Source: an uncultured Planctomycetia bacterium | GTDB taxonomy: Bacteria; Omnitrophota; Gorgyraeia; S143-82 | Assembly (NCBI GenBank): GCA_964469495.1 | Contig: CAYXYY010000011.1 | Location: 30,845-94,844 of the forward strand | Length of the DNA stretch: 64,000 nucleotides | Reading direction: 5' to 3' | Shown here: positions 1,924 through 57,850 of the stretch, piece after piece | Position numbering within the stretch: position 1 is the first letter of the stretch | Layout: every line of letters begins with the position of its first letter | Position numbers and translations under genes: made by a program | The notes under the pieces: generated by a model | Told to the model about the DNA's origin: nothing | The model's database searches: none | Seen by the model: only the letters and a program-made list of their open reading frames with translations

Positions 1924-4740
1924 ATGGTTTTCAGAAAGGGCGTTTTTATGGGATCTTGTGTGAAAAACGTATTTATACATTCGTTTTGTGTTTTTTTACT
2001 CTTATGTGTTGTTCTGTTTTGCTGTTCGAACGCCTATGCATACGATAGTTTTGATAATCTCAAATACGATATAAAATTTTCTTTTTCTAATACAGGGCAC
2101 TTCATAACGGCAAAAGAAACGATTTCCTTTAATTGTGAAGCGCCTTTGTCTGAGATTCATTTACATTTTTACCCGGCGCATAAATGGTCTGATGAGGAAA
2201 AAGATGCATATGAAAAGTACGGCGGGTATTTTAATATAGATACTCCGTTTCCTGACGGTTTTGACGAAAACAAGGCAGGCGTCAATTTTGTATCTGTAAA
2301 TGGCCGCAGGGCGCAATTTTCCTTAAAAGGCAAGGATCGCACGCTGCTGGTCATTTATCCGGATGCGCCTTTGTCAGGAAGTATTGTGCTGGATATAGAT
2401 TTTGAATTTTATGTGCCCAAGCGAATAGGCCGATTTGGAAGAAACAACGGTGTCTATAGTATTTACAGGGCATATCCGATTTTAGACGTAATGAAAGACG
2501 GAAAGTGGCTTGATTATCCCGATTACTTATTGTATCAGCCTTATGTAAGCCAATCGGCATTGTACGACGTGGCGATTGAGCTCCCAGAGTCCTTTGTGCT
2601 GGCGGCTAGCGGACAGGCCGTTGCATCTGAAAAAAGGCGCGGCAGTGTTTTATACAAGATATCTTCCGATAAACCCTTAAGGGATTTTTCTTTCTTTTTC
2701 AGCAAAAAATACCGTGTCTATACCAAGAACGTTGATGGTATAGATATTAAGGTCTATTATCTGCCTTCTGCCCCTTTTGATGCCGTGATGAATATATCAA
2801 AGTTTATAGAGGATGAGCTGATGTTTTATAAGGGGTATGGGTTTGAGTATCCGTATGGGCAAATATCCGTTGTGCCTGTTTATTTAGGTTATGGAGGCAA
2901 TGAGACCTCAAACGTCGTTATGCTTGACCGCAGGGTCCTTTTTATACCGAATGTTGCCAAGAGATATCAGGAGTTTTTGGCAGTGCATGAATTTGGCCAT
3001 CAGTTTTGGTTTAATCAGGTGGGTTCCGACGAATATGCAGAGCCGTTTGTTGATGAGGCCGTAAACTCCTATTTTGTGCAAAAATATCTTGAAGAGAAGT
3101 ATGGACACAACTGCAATGTCCTGACTTGGCCATGGCCATTGGATTTGTTTATGCCGAATTTTACCTTTCTCAACGGGACAACAGTAAGGTATAGATATCT
3201 TGCAAGGCGGGGAATAGATCTTCCTGTTTTGATGCAGGCCAATAAGATGAATGAACCCGATATGATTTTTGCGTTTGCATATGGAAAAGGTGAGGCCTTA
3301 TTCGAGACGATGGAACACAGCATAGGCAAAAAGGCGACGATGTCTATCTTTAAAGACTACTTTAAAAGATATAGATTTGCAATAGCAGATGTTAACGCAT
3401 TAGAAGATGTTTTCTCCCGGCATTTGGATAACATGAAACTTGATGCCAGTGATAGATTTGCCTCAGTGTTGAGGGATAAAGGAATTGATTTTTATGCCAA
3501 GAAGACAAGAAACGGATTTCGAATATTGGAAAGATCAGAGACACTTGAACGGGTAAAGGTGCGATATCGTTTAAACAGGCAGTGGCTTATGACAGATGTG
3601 AAAAGCGGAGATGTCTTGCATGCCGATAAGATTGTTATAGACCCGGATGATGAAGTCTTAGAAACGGACGAGGCAAACAATGTGTATCCTGTTTATGATA
3701 ATGTCGATTTTAAGCTAAAACCGTTGAACCTGCCTTTTTATTCAATGGATATCTTTAATACACAAAAGAGATTGACTGCTGACGTGGGATTTAATCTTTC
3801 AGAATTTGGCCCCGGGGTGCGGTTTAATTTGCACTATCCTTTTGTATATGATCTTGCATTAGGAGGGTATATAGATACTGCGCAGGATGAGAGGTCTATA
3901 ACCTCATCTTTTAGATTGCACGGGATTGACGAGACTTTGTGGGAAATGGCCTTGGAATATGCCTATAGGGATGATTATTCAGAGTATGACGAAAACAGTG
4001 AGGAGATAAGATTGTCTTTTTCTCTGCCTTTGCAGGCTCCCAGTTTTAGGCTCGGAAAAACAGACGATTTCTTTGAGTTATATATGGCGAAAAACAGAGA
4101 ATGGTTTTCCCAGATAGATGGTATGTTCGATAAGGTGGTTTCAAGTGTTTATTACGATGTCCAAGATCTGTTCTATGTTGGGTTTGGTATCCAGCGGTCT
4201 GTGGCAGAGGACTTTCTTATAAGGGCGTACTATGAATCAGGATTTGATAAACTAGGGGCGGATTTTTCATTCAATAGACTGTATTGCGAATCCATATACG
4301 GGTTTAAGTATAGGGATCTTGATTTCTCTGCGCGCGTTGGTTTGGGCCTATCTGATGCGGATAACAAACCCATGTTTTTTGCGGGAGGCAGCAATGGATT
4401 GCGGGCATATCGCAGAAAGGCAATAAGGGGAGGGAATCTGGCCTTGTTTTCAGTGCAGGCCTTCAAAAATATTTATGAAGCGGATGATAGTCTTGCGAGG
4501 CAAAACGGATATGTATCTGTTTCACACATAAAAACAGGCGTGTTTTTTGACGTTGGCAAGGTGTGGCAGGATTCCATGTCAGAAAACAGGTGGAAGAAGG
4601 ATATTGGTATCGGATTTAGGGTAGGCCTTAATTTCGGCGCATTGGCATCAAGCGCGGATTTGCGTCTGGATTTTGCCAATTCCATTGGTGAAGATGACGA
4701 TGAGTCCCGTATTGTCATTGGTTTTGGAAGCCGTTTTTAG
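1924..4740 (+). CDS. Secreted M1-like (gluzincin) zinc metallopeptidase domain fused to a C-terminal outer-membrane beta-barrel, giving a type-V/autotransporter-like architecture
   Basis: An N-terminal signal peptide is present. HEFGHQ...(19 aa)...E has HEXXH-X18/19-E spacing like M1 aminopeptidases. The C-terminal ~350 aa are rich in alternating aromatic/hydrophobic residues and end ...RIVIGFGSRF. A terminal Phe is the OMP beta-barrel signature. Confidence 0.6.
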   Translation: MVFRKGVFMGSCVKNVFIHSFCVFLLLCVVLFCCSNAYAYDSFDNLKYDIKFSFSNTGHFITAKETISFNCEAPLSEIHLHFYPAHKWSDEEKDAYEKYGGYFNIDTPFPDGFDENKAGVNFVSVNGRRAQFSLKGKDRTLLVIYPDAPLSGSIVLDIDFEFYVPKRIGRFGRNNGVYSIYRAYPILDVMKDGKWLDYPDYLLYQPYVSQSALYDVAIELPESFVLAASGQAVASEKRRGSVLYKISSDKPLRDFSFFFSKKYRVYTKNVDGIDIKVYYLPSAPFDAVMNISKFIEDELMFYKGYGFEYPYGQISVVPVYLGYGGNETSNVVMLDRRVLFIPNVAKRYQEFLAVHEFGHQFWFNQVGSDEYAEPFVDEAVNSYFVQKYLEEKYGHNCNVLTWPWPLDLFMPNFTFLNGTTVRYRYLARRGIDLPVLMQANKMNEPDMIFAFAYGKGEALFETMEHSIGKKATMSIFKDYFKRYRFAIADVNALEDVFSRHLDNMKLDASDRFASVLRDKGIDFYAKKTRNGFRILERSETLERVKVRYRLNRQWLMTDVKSGDVLHADKIVIDPDDEVLETDEANNVYPVYDNVDFKLKPLNLPFYSMDIFNTQKRLTADVGFNLSEFGPGVRFNLHYPFVYDLALGGYIDTAQDERSITSSFRLHGIDETLWEMALEYAYRDDYSEYDENSEEIRLSFSLPLQAPSFRLGKTDDFFELYMAKNREWFSQIDGMFDKVVSSVYYDVQDLFYVGFGIQRSVAEDFLIRAYYESGFDKLGADFSFNRLYCESIYGFKYRDLDFSARVGLGLSDADNKPMFFAGGSNGLRAYRRKAIRGGNLALFSVQAFKNIYEADDSLARQNGYVSVSHIKTGVFFDVGKVWQDSMSENRWKKDIGIGFRVGLNFGALASSADLRLDFANSIGEDDDESRIVIGFGSRF

Positions 4741-35113: not shown

Positions 35114-35557
35114 TTATATACTTGACCAAGTTGTGCCGCAACTAGAGCCAGTATAATCTGTGCTTTCTATTGTTCCGCCTTGAGTTACCCTATAACACTT
35201 GGTACCCAAATTGCTGTTTTGTGGTGTTGCCCGAACCGTATAAGTTGTAGTTGTAGGAGTCCCAACGATGCTGATATTATATCCCGATTTTAAAATGCTG
35301 GCAGTAGTTACATTATACCTGCTTGGAAGGTATCCATTAGCGTGTAGTGTGGAGAAAAAGTTCGTTGTTGGATACTGGTCATTTGCAATGAAGTATCCTT
35401 CAGCGGCCGTTCCGATTGTCCTGATCTCTGCGAGTGCTGCCTGCTGGTTTGCTGTCCTTCTGTTTCCAAGCAAGGAAGGCAGGGATATGCCAACCAAAAC
35501 AGCTATGATCGCAACGACGATCATCATTTCAATAAGTGTAAAACCTTTGTTTTTCAT
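35114..35557 (-). CDS. gspG: Major pseudopilin GspG-type (type II secretion / T4P-like pilin)
   Basis: MKNKG|FTLIEMMIVVAIIAVL and ...ALAEIRTIGTAAEGYFIANDQYPTT match the GspG hallmark (...LDNGRYPTTEQGL...). Confidence 0.8.
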   Translation of the reverse strand: MKNKGFTLIEMMIVVAIIAVLVGISLPSLLGNRRTANQQAALAEIRTIGTAAEGYFIANDQYPTTNFFSTLHANGYLPSRYNVTTASILKSGYNISIVGTPTTTTYTVRATPQNSNLGTKCYRVTQGGTIESTDYTGSSCGTTWSSI

Positions 35558-36082
35558 CTTAACCCCCTTTGTCGTCTGTCCTTAACTTGCCCCTTTTGGC
35601 TATAAGTTAGAATAAAACCATGCTTCCCAAGGGCCCTCCTTTTTAGTATCCTCTTCCTCACCTCCTTTCTTGCCAAGTGGCAATAAAAAAACCTGTCCGG
35701 CAGCCAAAACGCCAAACAGGTTTTCTATAATAGCCGGCAACTGGCTGCCCAGTTCTTGTCCCCCCTCAGGAACAAGCCTTGGGGCCCTATAGCTTTGCGC
35801 CCCCGCCTTTCGGCGGGTTTGCCCTTTTCGGTTAGAAAAGCCATAATTTCAAAGAGCACCTTTCTTCCTGCATACATAACTATATCTTATCCCCCTGTTT
35901 TGTCAACTTTTTATTTTTGCCCCCAAACCAAAATGCATAACCATTTGTCAAAAACCCATTTATAAAGTATAGCACATGTATGGATAAAGGCAAGTTTATT
36001 TGTCTGTTGATTTTAGCGGCCATGTATGATACTTTATCCCAAGTATTTATTTGCAAATCCGTTTAAATAGGAGGTTTTTACG

Positions 36083-49696: not shown

Positions 49697-50719
49697 ATGG
49701 ATATATGGCCGAAAATTATTTTGACTATGGTGTTTTGGGTGGCGAATATTTTTGTTTTAGAAAGCTCGGATTTTTCTACAGGCAATGAGAAAGCCATATT
49801 CCTGCACCACTCAACGGGTGGGAATTTATACTCTCAAGGGCACGTTGCCAGTTATGTATCTAACTATAATTCACAGCATAATACTAACTATGTGGTAGAG
49901 GAAAGGGCGTATCCCACGGGCCCTTATCCATGGAATAATTATCCGTATGATTGGTGGAACCTTTGGGTGACGGAGAACGAGGACGGATCCGATAGAATCC
50001 CGCCCTGTGATTCTTCTAACAGGAATATTGAATGTTTGAGTTCATTAACGCAGAATTACGACACCATCATCTTCAAGCACTGTTTTCCCGGGGCAGATGT
50101 CTTGGCAGATACAGGCAGTCCGGACGTTAGTTCCAGCAGAAAGAGTCTTGAGAATTACAATGCCCAATATCGCGCCTTGCGCAGGGAGTTTGACAAGTAT
50201 CCGAACAACCTATTTATTGCATGGACGCTTGTTCCAAGGCATAGGTTAGCCACAAATGCGGAGAATGCTGCGAGGGCAAAACAATTTGTTGATTGGGTAA
50301 AGAACGAATGGCTTACTGAGGATGGGCAATCACACCCTAATATAAAGGTGTTTGATTTTTGGGGATATGCGGCTGAGTCCAATGAGAATCCAGAGCGCGG
50401 ACAGGTCAATACCCTTAAATACGAATACGAAAGAAGCCATTCCAGCAGTGATTCACATCCCAATACATTGGCAAACGAAACAATAGGGCCCATATTTGCG
50501 CAGGCCGTAATAGACTATATGAGGGATTTCTTTTCAGAAGAAAGCTATGAAGATGAGGATATCAATCAGGATGGGAAAGTTGATGTGAGCGACGTTCAGG
50601 TAGTGGTCAACGTTATTTTGGGACATGCATCTAATAGCCGCGCAGACGTTAATAGTGATGGGAGTACCAACATAGTGGACGTACAGGTTGTGGTCAATCA
50701 AGTTATCAGCGCTGGTTAA
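49697..50719 (+). CDS. Secreted protein with a C-terminal type-I dockerin-like double Ca-binding repeat
   Basis: An N-terminal hydrophobic signal is present. The C-terminus has DINQDGKVDVSDVQVVVNVILG and DVNSDGSTNIVDVQVVVNQVISAG, two dockerin/EF-hand-like repeats (DxNxDGxV/NxxD). The catalytic N-domain is unrecognised. Confidence 0.6.
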   Translation: MDIWPKIILTMVFWVANIFVLESSDFSTGNEKAIFLHHSTGGNLYSQGHVASYVSNYNSQHNTNYVVEERAYPTGPYPWNNYPYDWWNLWVTENEDGSDRIPPCDSSNRNIECLSSLTQNYDTIIFKHCFPGADVLADTGSPDVSSSRKSLENYNAQYRALRREFDKYPNNLFIAWTLVPRHRLATNAENAARAKQFVDWVKNEWLTEDGQSHPNIKVFDFWGYAAESNENPERGQVNTLKYEYERSHSSSDSHPNTLANETIGPIFAQAVIDYMRDFFSEESYEDEDINQDGKVDVSDVQVVVNVILGHASNSRADVNSDGSTNIVDVQVVVNQVISAG

Positions 50720-51218: not shown

Positions 51219-51232
51219 ATTTGGAGGTGAAA

Positions 51233-51487
51233 ATGATGGATTATATAATGCCGATCTCAGAAGTAAGGAGTAAACTGTCTGAAATAGTTAAGAAAATATC
51301 CCGTATGAGAAAACACTTGATTATAACTAAAAATGGAAAACCTGAGGCAGTTTTACTCTCTCCGGAAGAATTGGAAACATTGGAAATCAAAGCAGATCAG
51401 GACCTGCTTCGGTCTATATTGCGGGCACAAGAGGACATTCAAAAAGGGCGACTTTATACTCACGAAGATATATTTAAAGATGTATAG
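51233..51487 (+). CDS. Type II antitoxin, Phd/YefM family
   Basis: MMDYIMPISEVRSKLSEIVKKI...HLIITKNGKPEAVLLSPEELETLE is the Phd/YefM pattern. An SD (GGAGGTG) is present. The stop overlaps the toxin start by 8 nt. Confidence 0.8.
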   Translation: MMDYIMPISEVRSKLSEIVKKISRMRKHLIITKNGKPEAVLLSPEELETLEIKADQDLLRSILRAQEDIQKGRLYTHEDIFKDV

Positions 51488-51764
51488 CATTCTCTATACA
51501 AAAGAAGCGAAGACCGCCATAGAAAAGCTGTCTATTAAAAAGAAGCGGCAAATCAAGGATGCTATTGAACGTATAGCAAGTGCCCCTAATATTGGCAAGC
51601 ATCTTACACATGAATTAAAAGGATTAATATCTTACCGTTCCGGTACCTATCGGATAATCTATCGTATAGATCATAAAAAAATTACCATTATAATATTGGC
51701 TATTGGCCATAGAAAAAATATTTATAAAGAAATACCCCGAAAATTTAATCGGAAGGACATCTGA
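51480..51764 (+). CDS. Type II toxin, RelE/ParE family
   Basis: MYSILYTKEAKTAIEKLS...GTYRIIYRIDHKKITIIILAIGHRKNIY is the RelE/ParE signature. It overlaps the antitoxin gene. Confidence 0.8.
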   Translation: MYSILYTKEAKTAIEKLSIKKKRQIKDAIERIASAPNIGKHLTHELKGLISYRSGTYRIIYRIDHKKITIIILAIGHRKNIYKEIPRKFNRKDI

Positions 51765-51862: not shown

Positions 51863-54800
51863 TTATTTTTTATTTTCAGGGGCCGTGTTGTTAGATACGT
51901 TTTCTTGAGAGATAATTGAATTATAGCTTTCAAGAAGAAGTCCTTGGGCCAATTTAAATTCAAGAATACTGATATTACAATCCGTAAGCGCAGAGTAATA
52001 AAGATAAGTGGATTTTCTCAAAGCGGATTCCGCATCCAGAACGTCATTAATTACTCCTTTGCCAACTTTGTATTTTAGTTTTTCAAGCCTTAACGTTTCT
52101 TCCGCCTCTTTTCGAGATGCCTCGGCAAGCCGCAATCTTTTCTTGGAAGAGGCAATATCCGCTAATGCTTTATTGACGTCTTTATAGATACTAAGTACGA
52201 TCTTTGACTCTTCCGCTTTTTGGGAATCATACTCTCCTTTTGCTTTTAAAATGTCTCCTTTTTTCATTCCGCTGTCAAAGATAAGGAAGCTGGCTTTTAC
52301 TCCGATCCAATATTCGCTTTGCCATCTATTGTCTCCGGGGAATTTAGAATCTCCGGAAGTTCCTGAGTATTCCCCCGCACCGGCAACAGCTCTAATTTCA
52401 GGGAAGTATGACCTTTTATATGATTTTAACCAAAAATAGGAAGATTTGAGCAAATGTCTAAAATTTTCCAAATCTTCTCTATATGCTAATGCTTTATTAA
52501 AAGCCTTTTGAATGGAAATTCCATCTAAATTTATATCAAATAAATTTAAAGTGTCATTTACATATAATTGACCTTGATATCCCATCTCCTCAGCCAAAAG
52601 CCCTAAAAGGTAAACTCTTTTACTCTCTAATTCTGCTATTTCATACTCGATTTCAGATAGGCGCACATTTATTTTTAACAAATCAATTTTAGCCGCTTTG
52701 CCTTTTTTAGAATACAACTCGGTTCTCCTCTGCAATTCTGAGATGCTTTTATGCAGTGTCTTTAAAGACTCCAGCAGTTTATCTAAAGAGATTATATTCA
52801 AGTATATATTTGAAACTGTAAAAACCACCACTTCTCTTCTTCTTTCCAAATTTTTTATAGATGATAGATATTTTTCTTTTGCTGATTTAAAGGCATAGAA
52901 GCTCTTCCCTAAGTCTGTAAGCAATAAAGATGCTTTCACTTGTCCTGAAATCAAGTTATTGTCAAACCTTTGATTATCTCCTGAAATGCCGGGTGCTACT
53001 GCATGTTTATTCTGGTAATTTGTATAAGTACAGTTTAGGCTTATTTGAGGGAGAAGGCCTGCTCTTATTTTGATATTTTCGCCTTTTGCTTTTTCTGTAT
53101 TGGCGGTTGATTTTTGAATATCAGGGCTGTTCTCAAGGGCATATTCAATAGCTGATTTTAAAGAAAATGTTTTTAGGCTAGTTGTTAAATCGTCGTTTAT
53201 TTTATTGTTTTCGTCTGCAAATAAATGTCCGCAACAAAACATAGAATATAGCCCCAGCGTTAATAGAATCACCGCAATTTTTGTTTTTTTAAATGAAAAT
53301 TTATTTTTTAAATCGTCGATGGAAGCATAAATAACAGGGATTATTATCATCGTTAGAAATGTTCCTAATATAAGGCCTGCTACTGCGACAATGCCTAACG
53401 GGCTTAAACGTTCTAATCCCACAGCCATTTCAAATACTAGGGGCGTAAGGCCTATAACAGTAGATGTGGCGGTCATAAGAATAGGCCTTGTCCTTATCTT
53501 GACTGATTGGACAATTGCATCCTCTTTGGATAAGCCATTTTTGCGGGCATGGATGATAAAATCTAAAAGTAAAATAGAATTATTCACAATTGTTCCCGAA
53601 AGAAGGATTATTCCCATAAGAGCAGGCATGCACATTGGTTTATCAAATATCAAAAGCCCCCATAGTGCCCCAATTGTTGCAAGAGGGATAGCCAGCATTA
53701 TAACTATGGGATGAGTAAAAGACTTATACATAGGCAAAATAACCACGTAAAGTAAAATTATCCCCAATATGAGCGCTTTTTTTAAACGATTTTTAGCATC
53801 CAACATATTCGCAGGGGTTCCGGACATCCTTATATTATAATCGCGCGGCAAAATCATACCTTTCTTTTTTAATTTTGTTCCGGCTGCCTTTGCGGCCTGA
53901 GCAATTGTATAGACATTGTTAACACCCGTTATATCAATTGTATTTTCTAAATCTTCGCGGGTTATAAACGGCTGAATATATGACTGCTTTATTTTGACCA
54001 GACTTCTTAGGGCGGCATCTCCATAGCGGGTAGGGATATATATGGAATCGAGTTTGGAAGGAAGATTTAAGTCTGCTTCTTTATACTCGATTCTTATAGG
54101 GATATCCAAAAAATCCTCCAGTCTCATAAAAGAGGCCAAAGCGCCTTTGGCAGCAAATTTGATATATTGGGAAACCTTTTCTGTATCTACTCCATAATAT
54201 TTGCAAAGAGAGGCATCGGGTTGAACCTCTATCTCAGGTTTGTCCATATACCAGCTTCTTCTTATGTCCACTAATCCTTTTGTCCCTTTTAGATTAGAAA
54301 GAATTTTATCTGCCATAACATTTAAGACTTTTGTGTTTTTGCCCATTAATATCAAGTCAAAAGGCGCTTTCGTCGTTGAAATAGGGGTTGCTCCGTACTC
54401 TACAACAGTAAACGACCTTATGCCTTCTATATTACGCAGTTTATTGCGCCATTCTTTCTCTATATCCCAGATAGTTTTTTTTCTTTTATCCCTTGTAACT
54501 AGATTAGCGGTTATAGATACTGTTTGAGTTGTTGTCCCGCCGCCCCCAAAACTTATTTCTCCGGGTTCAGAGCCAACGGTCGAAGATAAAGAAACAAATC
54601 CCGGTGTTTCCTTTATGAAGTTTTCAACCTTATTGAGAATGTTCTCTACTTTTTTTATGTTATAACTAGAGGGTATATCTAAAGTTATTTTTACAATTCC
54701 GGTATCCATAGGAGGCATAAGTTCGCCTACTAAAAGAGGGATAACCACTTTAATAGTAAAAACAAATGCAATAAAAACAAAAGAGAGGGTTTTGCCTTTA

Positions 54801-56392
54801 TGCCTCAATGCGATCTTTAAAATTGAGACATAAAAGTCAGATAATTTCTTTACCCAAATATCCATCCTGCTTACTAATTGCTCAACAAGGTTTTTCTTTC
54901 TCTCTTTTCTAGTCAAAACATAAGAGGAAATTAGCGGGACTATTGTCAGAGAGGCAATCAAAGACGCAAAAATAGTCGAACCTATCATAATAGACAACGG
55001 CCTTAGCACTTTTTGAGGATACCCGCCGACAAACATAACCGGTATTAAAACAATTACAGTGGTTAGTGTTCCGGCGATGTTCGCTAAAGCTACTTCGTTT
55101 GTTCCCAGCAAAGCTGCCTCATAAGGAGAAATAGTCTTATCCGTCTGAAAGCGGCGGTAGATATTCTCCAAGACAACAATAGATGCATCTACAACCATCC
55201 CCACAGCAATCATAAGCCCTGATAGGGTGACCATATTCATTGTATAATGGCTAAATTTTAAGACAATTAAGCTGAATAAAAAAGAGACGGGAATACTTAC
55301 AGAAATTATTGCGGCAGTCCTTTTATCAGCTAAGAACACAAATATAACCAAGATAGTCAAAATTATAGCTTGGATTAGAGAACCCCTCATGCCTTTAAGA
55401 TTAATATCTATTATGGGTTCTTGGTCATTGGTAATCTCAAACTTTATATCGGGATATTCTTTTTTAAATCTGGGCAGATATCTTTTAACTGCTTTTATAG
55501 TATCTAAAGTATGCCCATCTTCTGGCCTTAAAATATTAATAGCGATAGCCCTTTGGCCATTGCCGTGATAGAGGCTTCTTTGCTCTTTTATGCCCTGTGT
55601 TACATCGGCTACATCTTTAAGAAGGATATATCCCTGTTTCCTTTTTTTAAGGGGAAGATTTTTTATATGGTTTAAATTTTTAAATTCAGAAGTTGTACGT
55701 ATTAAAAATTCCTTTTCATCAGTATAAATATATCCGCCCGGAGCTGTTACATTTCTTCCTGCAACAGATGAGATTACGTCCATCAGAGTTAATCTATAAC
55801 CTTTGAGTTTATCTCTATCAATATGTATTTTAACTTCGGGCAAATATCCCCCAAAAACATCCACATCTCCAACTTCAGGAATTCTAAGGAGTTTATCTTT
55901 AATGTCATTTTCTGCTAAAAGCCGCACACTAGATAAAGTTTTTGAAGAGCCTTTTTTAGGCGAAAGAGCTAAAGTCATTGTTGCATGTGTTGCGTCAGTA
56001 ATTTTATAGATCTGAGGCGGCAGGATATCATGGGGGAGTTTTGTTTTTATTCTATCTAAAACGTTTGTTACATCTATGGCAGCTGTATCTATATTTTTAG
56101 AATAGTAGAACTCTGCCGTAACTGCCGAAACCTCATCTCTGGAAATTGATTTTACTTTTTTGATGCCCGAGATTGTATTTACTTCTTTTTCTATGATCTC
56201 TGTGATTTTATCCGATATATCTTTAGCTGAAGCGCCTGGTTCAATTGTTAGTATCAGCACTTGAGGAGGCGATGTGTTGGGAAACAAATCCACTGGAGTT
56301 TTAAAAAAGGCGATAATTCCTAAAACAAGGACTACAAGGCTGAAAGCCATTACAATATACGGATTTTTTAAAGAGATTTCAGTTAGGTTCAT
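51863..56392 (-). CDS. RND (HAE1/AcrB-like) efflux permease fused in frame, via an extra hydrophobic segment, to a TolC-like outer-membrane factor (OMF) domain. It is a single 1509-aa ORF.
   Basis: Residues 1 to about 1040 show the typical 12-TM RND layout with two large periplasmic loops. The RND part is followed by ...IDDLKNKFSFKKTKIAVILLTLGLYSMFCCGHLFADEN.., a 13th hydrophobic segment, and then SLKSAIEYALENSPDIQ..., the canonical TolC/OEP start. Two OEP repeats follow, up to ...LAQGLL. I translated the junction myself and found no stop codon. Confidence 0.85.
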   Translation of the reverse strand: MNLTEISLKNPYIVMAFSLVVLVLGIIAFFKTPVDLFPNTSPPQVLILTIEPGASAKDISDKITEIIEKEVNTISGIKKVKSISRDEVSAVTAEFYYSKNIDTAAIDVTNVLDRIKTKLPHDILPPQIYKITDATHATMTLALSPKKGSSKTLSSVRLLAENDIKDKLLRIPEVGDVDVFGGYLPEVKIHIDRDKLKGYRLTLMDVISSVAGRNVTAPGGYIYTDEKEFLIRTTSEFKNLNHIKNLPLKKRKQGYILLKDVADVTQGIKEQRSLYHGNGQRAIAINILRPEDGHTLDTIKAVKRYLPRFKKEYPDIKFEITNDQEPIIDINLKGMRGSLIQAIILTILVIFVFLADKRTAAIISVSIPVSFLFSLIVLKFSHYTMNMVTLSGLMIAVGMVVDASIVVLENIYRRFQTDKTISPYEAALLGTNEVALANIAGTLTTVIVLIPVMFVGGYPQKVLRPLSIMIGSTIFASLIASLTIVPLISSYVLTRKERKKNLVEQLVSRMDIWVKKLSDFYVSILKIALRHKGKTLSFVFIAFVFTIKVVIPLLVGELMPPMDTGIVKITLDIPSSYNIKKVENILNKVENFIKETPGFVSLSSTVGSEPGEISFGGGGTTTQTVSITANLVTRDKRKKTIWDIEKEWRNKLRNIEGIRSFTVVEYGATPISTTKAPFDLILMGKNTKVLNVMADKILSNLKGTKGLVDIRRSWYMDKPEIEVQPDASLCKYYGVDTEKVSQYIKFAAKGALASFMRLEDFLDIPIRIEYKEADLNLPSKLDSIYIPTRYGDAALRSLVKIKQSYIQPFITREDLENTIDITGVNNVYTIAQAAKAAGTKLKKKGMILPRDYNIRMSGTPANMLDAKNRLKKALILGIILLYVVILPMYKSFTHPIVIMLAIPLATIGALWGLLIFDKPMCMPALMGIILLSGTIVNNSILLLDFIIHARKNGLSKEDAIVQSVKIRTRPILMTATSTVIGLTPLVFEMAVGLERLSPLGIVAVAGLILGTFLTMIIIPVIYASIDDLKNKFSFKKTKIAVILLTLGLYSMFCCGHLFADENNKINDDLTTSLKTFSLKSAIEYALENSPDIQKSTANTEKAKGENIKIRAGLLPQISLNCTYTNYQNKHAVAPGISGDNQRFDNNLISGQVKASLLLTDLGKSFYAFKSAKEKYLSSIKNLERRREVVVFTVSNIYLNIISLDKLLESLKTLHKSISELQRRTELYSKKGKAAKIDLLKINVRLSEIEYEIAELESKRVYLLGLLAEEMGYQGQLYVNDTLNLFDINLDGISIQKAFNKALAYREDLENFRHLLKSSYFWLKSYKRSYFPEIRAVAGAGEYSGTSGDSKFPGDNRWQSEYWIGVKASFLIFDSGMKKGDILKAKGEYDSQKAEESKIVLSIYKDVNKALADIASSKKRLRLAEASRKEAEETLRLEKLKYKVGKGVINDVLDAESALRKSTYLYYSALTDCNISILEFKLAQGLLLESYNSIISQENVSNNTAPENKK

Positions 56393-57464
56393 TTTTATTC
56401 ATAACCTTAACAGGTTCTCCTTCTGTCAATTTAACCCAGGATAGATATGGGTTTTTTACTACAGCAACACCAGGAGACAAATTCTTGCATTCAACAAACA
56501 TATCGGACCTTATGCCTAAAATAACAGGGTATTTTTTTAGTTTGCCGTTTTGAACTATGAATATAAACGGCTTGAGCCCAGATTCATTTACTACTGCGCT
56601 TTTGGGAATAGCGACAACACCCTTTTTTTGTTCTGTCACAACCTTAACCGGCACAAACGCTCCGGTATAAAGTCCTTCCTTATTGTCCAGATATGCCTCA
56701 ACACGTAAAAGTTTACCCTCAGAAATAGTGGGAAAAACATTTGTTATCTTTGCCTTCGTAAAACTGTTTTTATCTTTATAGAGAATAGGCATATCTTTTT
56801 TTATAAACTGCACATCTTCCTGCGGTACATCAAAAACAAGTTTTAGCCGGCTTCTGTCTTCAATGATGAATAAAATCTTTCCTGGAGCCGCTAAATCCCC
56901 GGCATCCACAGTTCTTTTAGAAACAATACCATCATAAGGAGATTTTATTTCCGTGTAATTTAAATTTGCTTGCCAGAATTTAATGTTTTCTTTTGCATTT
57001 TCGAGTCTTGATTTTGCTTGAGCAAAAGCATTTTTTGTTCTATCCATTTCTTCTTCAGATATGGCGCCTTGCTTAAATAAATATTCGTCTCTGTTATTTT
57101 CCTTTTGCCAGTAATTAAAATTCTCTTCGGCTGCAGAGAGAACTTGTTTGGCTGAATTTAGTTTGGCTAAAATATCTCTATCGTCTAGTTTTGCCAATAA
57201 ATCCCCCTTTTTTACAATGGAGCCTTCGTCTACAAGTATTTTTTCAATAACCGCACTAACTCTGGTTGAAACTTTTGTTTCATTTATCGGAGCAATTTTT
57301 GCTAAATATCCCCTGAATTTTTCAATATCTTTTTTCTGGGAATAGAAAACTGAAACCAATACTGGTTTCTTGCCAAAGACAGGTGCGTGTGATAGCTCAA
57401 TTTTTTTCTTTAAAATAAAAAATGCGGCTAGAATTATCAATATGAGTATTACTAATTTTTTCAT
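56379..57464 (-). CDS. RND efflux membrane fusion protein (periplasmic adaptor, HlyD/AcrA family)
   Basis: It has an N-terminal TM/signal (MKKLVILILIILAAFFIL), coiled-coil hairpin, lipoyl and beta-barrel segments. It overlaps the RND gene by 14 nt. The start at 57464 forms an ATGA overlap with the padR stop. Confidence 0.8.
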   Translation of the reverse strand: MKKLVILILIILAAFFILKKKIELSHAPVFGKKPVLVSVFYSQKKDIEKFRGYLAKIAPINETKVSTRVSAVIEKILVDEGSIVKKGDLLAKLDDRDILAKLNSAKQVLSAAEENFNYWQKENNRDEYLFKQGAISEEEMDRTKNAFAQAKSRLENAKENIKFWQANLNYTEIKSPYDGIVSKRTVDAGDLAAPGKILFIIEDRSRLKLVFDVPQEDVQFIKKDMPILYKDKNSFTKAKITNVFPTISEGKLLRVEAYLDNKEGLYTGAFVPVKVVTEQKKGVVAIPKSAVVNESGLKPFIFIVQNGKLKKYPVILGIRSDMFVECKNLSPGVAVVKNPYLSWVKLTEGEPVKVMNKNEPN

Positions 57465-57850
57465 AATTTTTCTCTTTGATAAAAATCTAAAAAATTCTCT
57501 AATGCGTTTTTTCTCTCCTTGATTCTTTCGACCCATGCTTTAAGCAGTCTTCTGCCATGAGGAGTGATTTGATAGACCCTTTTTCTTCTTGAACCCTTTG
57601 TTTTCCATGAAGATTTTACAAGGAATTCTTTTTCCATCTTTCTCAATATCCGATACACTGATCCTATATCAATGTTTTTTTTATGAAAGCCAAGGAGTTT
57701 TAATTTATCGATCAATTCATAACCGTGAGACGGCTTCTTTGACAAAAACAAGAGTAGACCGGGCTGAATAAATCTTGAAACTCTACGCAGGGAAAAATTG
57801 CAGCCCTTTTCTTTTTCATCCAATTTTTCCCCTAATTCTTTTGATTTCAT
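57461..57850 (-). CDS. PadR-family transcriptional regulator, the first gene of the efflux operon
   Basis: ...PGLLLFLSKKPSHGYELIDKL...GSVYRILRKMEKEFLV...RKRVYQITPHGRRLL is the PadR wHTH signature. An SD (AGGAGA) precedes the internal ATG at 57850, which is preferred over the 57877 start. Confidence 0.75.
   Translation of the reverse strand: MKSKELGEKLDEKEKGCNFSLRRVSRFIQPGLLLFLSKKPSHGYELIDKLKLLGFHKKNIDIGSVYRILRKMEKEFLVKSSWKTKGSRRKRVYQITPHGRRLLKAWVERIKERKNALENFLDFYQREKL

Follow-up and report, generated by a model that had tools for sequence, protein, structure and literature searches.

Textbook tripartite efflux pumps of the resistance-nodulation-division (RND) type consist of three separately made proteins. 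How should a gene be understood in which the inner-membrane permease and the outer-membrane channel are read as one polypeptide? The question is raised by a stretch of DNA from an uncultured Planctomycetia bacterium placed in the Omnitrophota (contig CAYXYY010000011.1 of assembly GCA_964469495.1, positions 30,845 to 94,844), the whole 64,000 nucleotides of which are referred to here as the window. Its minus strand carries a single ATG-initiated open reading frame (ORF) of 1509 aa (51863..56392) that begins as an RND permease and ends as a TolC-type outer membrane factor (OMF). We find that the fusion is a real, old and apparently undescribed architecture, and that its product is probably a precursor which signal peptidase I would cut into a pump with 13 transmembrane (TM) helices and a free channel. 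The parts of the gene, all on the minus strand, are as follows.

51863..56392 (-): fused ORF comprising RND permease, predicted internal signal peptide and OMF channel (ORF list, translation, Pfam).
53291..56392 (-): RND permease moiety, M1-F1034, with 12 TM helices and two large periplasmic loops (ACR_tran; MdtB 9lyq_B; AlphaFold2 (AF2) model).
53318..53404 (-): TM12 of the RND moiety, SPLGIVAVAGLILGTFLTMIIIPVIYASI (translation; helix 997-1031 in the AF2 model).
53216..53290 (-): signal-peptide-like segment K1035-A1059, with n-region KKTK, h-region IAVILLTLGLYSMFC and c-region CGHLFA (colinearity with an unfused orthologue, family-wide n/h/c layout, likeness to unfused OMF signal peptides).
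53213..53218 (-): predicted signal peptidase I site A1059/D1060, L-F-A/D (conserved Ala at -1; cleavage predicted).
51866..53215 (-): TolC-type OMF moiety, D1060-K1509, with the stop codon at 51863..51865 (two OEP repeats; TolC alignment; AF2 and Foldseek).

One reading frame, two complete folds

The ORF listing, the translation and a direct reading of the junction DNA all show a frame that is free of stops throughout, junction included. In frame, the end of TM12 (...IIIPVIYASI) is followed by DDLKNKFSF, by KKTKIAVILLTLGLYSMFCCGHLFA (nt 53290..53216) and, from nt 53215 (DENNK), by DENNKINDDLTTSLKTFSLKSAIEYALENSPDIQ..., with coordinates confirmed by translation. A preliminary description of this DNA had reported a complete AcrB-type permease running without a stop into a full TolC/OEP domain; this reading holds, and the peptides that it quoted all lie where it placed them. 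The G+C content of the fused ORF is 36.2%, versus 41.2% for the window.

The first two thirds of the protein have the full-length architecture of HAE1-like members of the RND superfamily (~1020 residues, 12 TM helices and two loops), as judged from Pfam and from an AF2 model. ACR_tran (PF00873) matches residues 5-1025 with nearly its whole profile, from position 3 to position 1020 of 1021 (E 1.1e-207); the nearest solved structure is MdtB (9lyq_B, E 2e-101). The model, which was built for the permease together with the hydrophobic segment that follows it (TM13), has a mean predicted local distance difference test score (pLDDT) of 83.7 and a predicted TM-score (pTM) of 0.79, and it displays the complete RND secondary-structure pattern with the expected helices and periplasmic beta-alpha-beta subdomains. 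The cut-off for a multidrug RND subfamily in NCBIfam is not reached, the best match being NF033617 (RND_permease_2) with 613 bits against 1250.

The permease also lacks the proton relay of AcrB in its familiar form (D407/D408 in TM4, K940 in TM10 and R971 in TM11; the AcrB numbering was assigned by eye from AcrB motifs). TM4 reads V-D402-A-S and TM10 reads V-N937-N938..D944, which leaves, of the AcrB residues, only the first Asp and the Arg of TM11 (R969). Where AcrB has D-D in TM4 and Lys (K940) in TM10, the window clade has D-A and Asn. The single Asp of TM4 (V-D-A-S rather than the V-D-D-A of AcrB), the Asn at the K940 position and the Asp in TM10 are invariant in 74 fused and 45 unfused members of the clade. 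Because the variant is invariant in these 119 proteins, fused and unfused alike, it appears to be a conserved alternative rather than a product of decay, and the clade looks like one with a conserved, non-AcrB charge relay. In the window protein the residues of this region are D402/A403, N937/N938/D944 and R967/R969.

The C-terminal third contains two stretches of OEP (Pfam PF02321, E 1.1e-44; outer membrane factors are TC 1.B.17), the tandem repeats expected of a protomer that contributes to both a helical tunnel and a beta-barrel. When a 474-aa query starting at residue 1036 of the protein was used, the OMF half aligned end to end with residues 8-410 of Escherichia coli TolC, and query residue 48 paired with residue 8 of mature TolC. 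After cleavage at the predicted site, the new N-terminus would therefore fall at the position of the mature TolC N-terminus. An AF2 model based on 18 homologues (pLDDT 86, pTM 0.77) shows a helix, a beta-hairpin, a 67-residue helix and a further helix, in a pattern that occurs twice. In Foldseek the model matched TolC (1ek9) with E 8e-20 and a TM-score of 0.81; TM-scores ranged from 0.79 to 0.83 for TolC and from 0.72 to 0.79 for OprM and CusC, and CmeC, MtrE and VceC were matched as well. The best NCBIfam model for the channel is the TolC type (TIGR01844), with 92 bits and under its cut-off of 225. It had been considered that the C-terminal region might not have an OEP fold at all; the TolC alignment, the AF2 model and the Foldseek score dispose of this doubt. 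This OMF differs from others in the place of its predicted Sec signal peptide, which is expected at the N-terminus of a separately translated protein and lies here inside the chain, at residues 1035-1059.

The linker corresponds to the signal peptide of an unfused channel

The closest unfused relative of the system (locus L001, GCA_053989715.1) is an operon of the order PadR-MFP-RND-OMF, in which MFP denotes the membrane fusion protein or periplasmic adaptor, the RND protein has 1039 aa and is 75% identical to the RND moiety of the window, and the OMF has 463 aa. The stop codon of its RND gene and the start codon of its OMF gene overlap as ATGA, a Shine-Dalgarno sequence (GAGGGG) lies before the overlap, and the two genes are read in different frames. 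The L001 channel begins MKKRIEALFVFVFIFSVYGFA/EEQRHSFGLKEAIEYALKNSPDIK, with a mature start at EE, and is colinear, residue for residue, with F1034-FKKTKIAVILLTLGLYSMFCCGHLFA/DEN..SLKSAIEYALENSPDIQ of the window protein. Gene order, the PadR regulator, the signal peptide and the mature N-terminus of the channel thus agree between the two loci. The loci differ in that L001 consists of two genes that overlap as ATGA, the second of them with its own Shine-Dalgarno sequence and Met start codon. The window lacks the RND stop codon together with about 6 C-terminal RND codons, as well as the Shine-Dalgarno sequence and the Met, at whose position it has Phe1034. Since it is colinear with the N-terminal signal peptide of the L001 OMF, the extra segment, or "13th TM", appears to be the channel's own Sec signal peptide, formerly N-terminal. 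The likeness to an OMF signal peptide that had been remarked on from the window alone is borne out by this comparison.

By rule-based scoring, the window segment KKTK/IAVILLTLGLYSMFC/CGHLFA/D fits the pattern of a Sec signal, which calls for a basic n-region, a hydrophobic h-region of ~7-15 residues and a polar c-region with small residues at -3/-1. To see how widely these features are kept, we turned to the family. From a protein search we took the best 120 clusters and counted as fused those proteins of 1470-1578 aa that matched both Pfam domains. Seventy-four of the 120 are fused, and their identity to the window protein descends from 79% to 42%. The search for RND-OEP fusions and the comparison of junctions in relatives, both proposed in the preliminary description, thus yielded 74 fused clusters with a shared linker layout. 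Across the 74 (42-79% identity), no part of the chain is less conserved than the linker, and the n/h/c layout is nevertheless retained in 73 of them. These linkers have a basic n-region with a median net charge of +3 and an uncharged h+c stretch with a median length of 21 aa. A small-x-small site is found in 73 of the 74 members, with Ala at -1 in 70 of the 73 sites and V, A or S at -3 in 62. In an alignment of 18 sequences (A1, mean column identity 45%), the Ala at -1 is the sole linker position conserved at 90% or more.

Compared with the N-terminal signal peptides of 124 unfused OMF relatives, the linkers proved statistically similar, with the following values.

h+c length, median: 21 aa in fused linkers, 19 aa in unfused OMF signal peptides.
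Peak hydropathy: 3.03 in fused linkers, 2.87 in unfused OMF signal peptides.
Net charge of the n-region: +3 in fused linkers, +2 in unfused OMF signal peptides.
Ala at -1: 96% of fused linkers, 75% of unfused OMF signal peptides.

As a control, a stringent A-x-A rule was applied to the same proteins: it was satisfied by 79% of the linker hydrophobic segments versus 20% of 788 RND TM helices. A plain membrane anchor is not expected to keep the -3/-1 pattern. In the AF2 model of the permease, the TM13 helix has a pLDDT of ~50 against 84 for the RND body, which offers no indication that the 13th helix is integrated into the RND fold but is weak evidence either way.

Of the three readings offered in the preliminary description, the internally processed precursor cut at LFA/DE is the one that we favour, on the grounds of the homology with an unfused orthologue, adherence to the -3/-1 rule in 73 of 74 members and drift in the rest of the linker. 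Several points weigh on the other side. The site in the window has Leu at -3, which is allowed but suboptimal, and its h-region, with ~15 residues, is close to the maximum length for a cleavable signal. Cleavage by signal peptidase after 12 TM helices has few bacterial precedents. The signal-peptide scores come from a home-made rule set rather than from SignalP, and the C-terminal end of the alignment (A3) behind the permease model is imperfectly aligned, which may partly explain the low pLDDT of TM13.

A Cys-Cys pair in the window linker raised the question of lipoprotein processing by signal peptidase II. In the linker alignment of the fused family there is no lipobox (L-[AS]-[GA]-C), a feature expected only of the NodT/OprM lipoprotein subfamily of OMFs, and no conserved Cys, and this candidate was rejected.

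Is the channel made from an internal start?

If the channel were made mainly from a start codon inside the fused ORF, the read-through fusion would be a by-product. The window linker does contain an in-frame GTG (V1041) and an in-frame ATG (M1051), and the preliminary description, which credited the segment with no such codon, is to that extent inaccurate. Its substance stands, however: both codons lie within the hydrophobic core with no Shine-Dalgarno-like sequence upstream of either, and a product initiated at V1041 or M1051 would be devoid of the n-region and of most of the h-region and would not be an exportable channel. The contrast with unfused L001, in which GAGGGG precedes the ATG, is plain. 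Among the 11 fused loci compared, no start position is conserved and no conserved in-frame start codon with a Shine-Dalgarno sequence was found in the linker; one of them (L003) has no start codon whatever in its first 40 linker codons. Because such a start is missing from the linkers, the channel could, as judged from these sequences, be obtained only through the fusion, and we consider internal initiation very unlikely.

The fusion is widespread and old

The junction DNA is A/T-rich with homopolymer runs, and unfused relatives with an ATGA overlap exist, so that a sequencing or assembly indel, or a fresh mutation, might have removed a stop/start pair in the window. One related locus, L006 (CAYXBX010000048.1, a Planctomycetia metagenome-assembled genome (MAG)), is indeed frameshifted elsewhere in the gene: its junction is intact, and the frameshift lies in the RND half between TM8 and TM9 (~3780-3860) and represents either an assembly error or a pseudogene. 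Three observations speak against such an origin for the fusion itself. First, the identical 1509-aa protein is recorded, besides the 97-kb contig, on a second contig of an ENA assembly (29.6 kb, ERZ27262694). Second, the unfused state is more than one change away, given that the frames differ in L001 and that both the Met codon and the Shine-Dalgarno sequence are absent from the window. And finally, the fusion recurs far beyond this organism. The 74 fused clusters include proteins from finished or near-finished genomes, namely Deferrisoma camini (WP_025323174.1, on a 4.24-Mb contig), Desulfuromonas sp. AOP6 (WP_155877529.1, 3.27 Mb), Desulfuromonas sp. KJ2020 and Pontiellaceae B1224.

The list grew when the species genomes of GTDB were scanned. 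The search pattern was built from an alignment of 8 sequences (A2), the 18-sequence alignment A1 being too diverse for pattern design. Intact fused ORFs were found in 3 Omnitrophota MAGs, 2 Desulfuromonadaceae, 1 member of the Riflebacteria, 1 of the Thermodesulfobacteriota and 3 unclassified MAGs, and fused ORFs running off a contig end were found on 1 Omnitrophota and 1 Acidobacteriota contig. Several phyla, with no fewer than 11 GTDB species genomes among them, thus carry the fusion. The loci nearest to the window belong to Omnitrophota and unclassified MAGs; going by these loci only, the window would probably come from that group. A scan of genome contigs with a single OMF sequence found no relative. 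We conclude that an artefact or very recent accident has practically no chance of being the explanation, and the idea of a very recent loss of the stop/start pair, which had been put forward for this gene, is refuted by the phylogenetic breadth and the divergence (down to 42% identity) of the family.

How far the family extends beyond the best clusters is indicated by two further observations. In a distant fused family (P0183, 1527 aa) the relay is the canonical one, with D-D and Lys, and the linker ends in ...LLTGASGFA/LE. A search of representatives returned at least ~10 fused or fragment-of-fused clusters at 50% identity amid mostly ordinary OMFs, a figure that is based on lengths for the best 150 matches only and from which the size of the fused family is not derivable.

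A neighbour-joining tree of the RND halves was constructed; it is without support values and serves only to show how fused and unfused proteins interleave. One fused clade has 18 members, including the window protein, with two unfused proteins (P0019 and P0020) nested within it, and a second fused clade of 56 members is sister to 42 unfused proteins. Because the tree requires at least 4 changes of state, it appears that both fusion and fission have occurred, and that the fused state has persisted through deep divergence. Gene order differs correspondingly: it is OMF-adaptor-RND in the unfused sister clade and adaptor-RND-OMF in the fused clades and in L001, the latter being the only order that permits an RND-OMF fusion.

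The adaptor gene is retained

Two genes precede the fused gene in the window.

57461..57850 (-): PadR-family transcriptional regulator, 129 aa, first gene of the operon (Pfam PadR, E 5.7e-17; gene call on L002).
56379..57464 (-): periplasmic adaptor (MFP) gene (TIGR01730, Pfam HlyD_D23 and HlyD_3, gene call on L002).

The adaptor gene shares 4 nt with the PadR gene and 14 nt with the fused gene, and its product matches NCBIfam TIGR01730 (RND_mfp) with 205 bits, over the cut-off of 94.9. The ORF of the regulator could be extended to 57877; the start that gives 129 aa was taken from the gene call on the identical contig L002. An MFP gene lies upstream of the fusion also in the distant fused loci L014 and L016, and the regulator in front is PadR in the window and TetR in L016. 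Since the MFP gene is kept in the window and in distant fused loci, the system must still need a periplasmic bridge.

With an RND permease, an upstream MFP adaptor, a channel of the TolC/OprM fold and a repressor gene in front, the locus resembles AcrAB-TolC, MexAB-OprM and MdtABC-TolC. It departs from these canonical tripartite pumps in that permease and channel are not separate at the gene level and instead form one ORF joined by an internal signal peptide. Functionally it is a tripartite RND efflux system.

A processed precursor as the favoured mechanism

The sequences and models establish the ORF, the two folds, the kinship of the linker with a signal peptide, and the conservation of signal-peptide features and of the fusion in several phyla. 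From these we infer how the chain lies in the membrane, that it is cleaved, what becomes of the two products and what the cell gains, as follows. The gene would specify a polyprotein that yields two parts of a tripartite RND efflux pump, ordinary in other respects. The RND half would be inserted co-translationally with the end of TM12 in the cytoplasm, which is where this end lies in AcrB. The KKTK n-region would stay inside, and the h-region would span the membrane as a 13th span, N-terminus in and C-terminus out, and set the channel domain of 450 residues on its way into the periplasm, by a translocation like that of the two ~300-residue periplasmic loops of the pump. Signal peptidase I would then cut after L-F-A1059 and free the mature TolC-like protein, which would begin at DENNK, take the normal route of chaperones and the beta-barrel assembly machinery (BAM) to the outer membrane, and trimerise. 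The signal peptide would stay on the pump as its 13th and last helix, the C-terminus of the pump would lie in the periplasm, and the separately encoded upstream MFP adaptor would bridge pump and channel. The outcome of processing would most likely be a conventional pump. The likely benefit is obligatory 1:1 synthesis (the pump being RND3:OMF3) together with co-localised export, in effect a hardened form of the translational coupling that the ATGA overlap would provide in L001.

The principal alternative is that the hydrophobic segment is not cleaved and serves as a permanent 13th TM anchor, so that one polypeptide would connect the inner membrane with a beta-barrel located in the outer one. 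The continuous ORF and the conservation of the fusion are compatible with such a tether, as is the median h+c length, which slightly exceeds that of unfused OMF signal peptides. Against it, nothing in a plain anchor would hold Ala at -1 and a small residue at -3 constant in 73 of 74 members when all other positions of the segment drift. A separate MFP gene, too, has been retained.

Geometry bears on this alternative as well. The spacer between the predicted site and the first conserved OMF motif has a median length of 9 residues and a range of 5 to 81, with 18 in the window (7 of the 74 fused proteins gave no value). Fully extended, the median spacer spans at most ~32 A, and 9-18 residues span ~30-65 A. 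In the model, the N-terminus of the OMF lies ~34 helical residues (~50 A) below the barrel on a tunnel of 67 residues (~100 A), roughly halfway up. In solved AcrAB-TolC assemblies (for example 5ng5), the RND headpiece and the adaptor hairpins separate the tip of the tunnel from the inner membrane. Because 9-18 extended residues cannot bridge the gap between the OMF N-terminus and the inner membrane, the spacer would be too short for a tether between two membranes. The tethered polypeptide, which was the first of the preliminary readings, is accordingly disfavoured, and we regard it as improbable.

Spacers are much longer in three close fused relatives (P0005, P0006 and P0007; 68-71% identity), in which low-complexity inserts of 55-81 residues, rich in Lys, Glu and Pro, lie between the site and the OMF fold, whereas most members have 8-10 residues there. 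The existence of these Lys-rich spacers after the segment can be cited in favour of a tether. That the segment stays uncleaved at least in some members, such as these, and gives a 13-TM pump covalently joined to an outer-membrane beta-barrel, is in our estimate quite improbable. Processing by signal peptidase I is the reading that we consider probable.

Other features of the window

A type II toxin-antitoxin pair (~51230..51764 (+)), encoded on the other strand, lies directly downstream of the efflux operon. The ORF at 51333..51764 (+), beside the 3' end of the fused gene, encodes a ParE-family toxin (Pfam ParE_toxin/ParE-like_toxin), and the gene calls on L002 place a Phd/YefM antitoxin next to it. 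The only Pfam match of a 340-aa protein encoded at 49697..50719 (+) is a type I dockerin at its C-terminus (E 5e-8); such a protein is unexpected beside the housekeeping genes for DnaE, an EPSP-synthase-family enzyme and a Macro-NUDIX protein. A c-di-GMP-I-GGC riboswitch aptamer (Rfam RF03167) occupies 35732..35832 (-), scoring 67 bits against a gathering score of 59, directly upstream of a type IV pilin-like gene (35114..35557 (-)) that matches N_methyl and ComP_DUS.

Relation to known systems and significance

The closest parallels in mechanism are polyproteins divided at internal signal peptides, of which the Bradyrhizobium japonicum FbcH cytochrome b/c1 precursor is a bacterial example. 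Among viruses, PMC7926653 describes glycoprotein precursors (bunyavirus Gn/Gc) that host signal peptidase splits at internal signal peptides, and Nilsson, Whitley and von Heijne (PMC2120157) report that short hydrophobic cores favour cleavage over anchoring. In such internal-signal polyproteins, and as proposed for the window product, an n/h/c signal comes after a membrane protein within one chain, and cleavage at the signal separates two functional proteins. The window product differs in that it would release an outer-membrane channel that still has to cross the periplasm, that its upstream partner is a 12-TM transporter, and that it is known here from sequence alone. Other gene fusions hold the partners of RND-type machines at a set ratio, examples being the fused dimeric adaptor DSY0927 and fused SecDF (PMC4446572, PMC8277102); these join partners of the same compartment and stay uncleaved, and neither links an inner-membrane to an outer-membrane component.

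In full-text literature searches we found no description of a natural RND-OMF fusion, and the passages of reviews that they returned mention fused dimeric adaptors and fused SecDF only. The arrangement is therefore unusual, as had been supposed, in the literature searched. In the databases it is common, though mis-named. JGI calls some members 'AcrB/outer membrane protein TolC', and fused proteins of ~1480 aa such as WP_025323174.1, WP_155877529.1, WP_253959710.1 and MDF7800069.1 are named only 'efflux RND transporter permease subunit'. The NCBI naming hides the TolC-like half, and OMFs may have been missed in surveys of Omnitrophota, Desulfuromonadales and other groups.

The matching of component numbers and the pairing of channels with pumps are practical questions for tripartite pumps, and this natural family offers a genetic system with strict 1:1 synthesis of pump and channel. 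If the proposal of a cleaved precursor is true, an outer-membrane protein would be launched via the co-translational route of an inner-membrane protein, and an RND transporter would end with a 13th helix and a periplasmic C-terminus.

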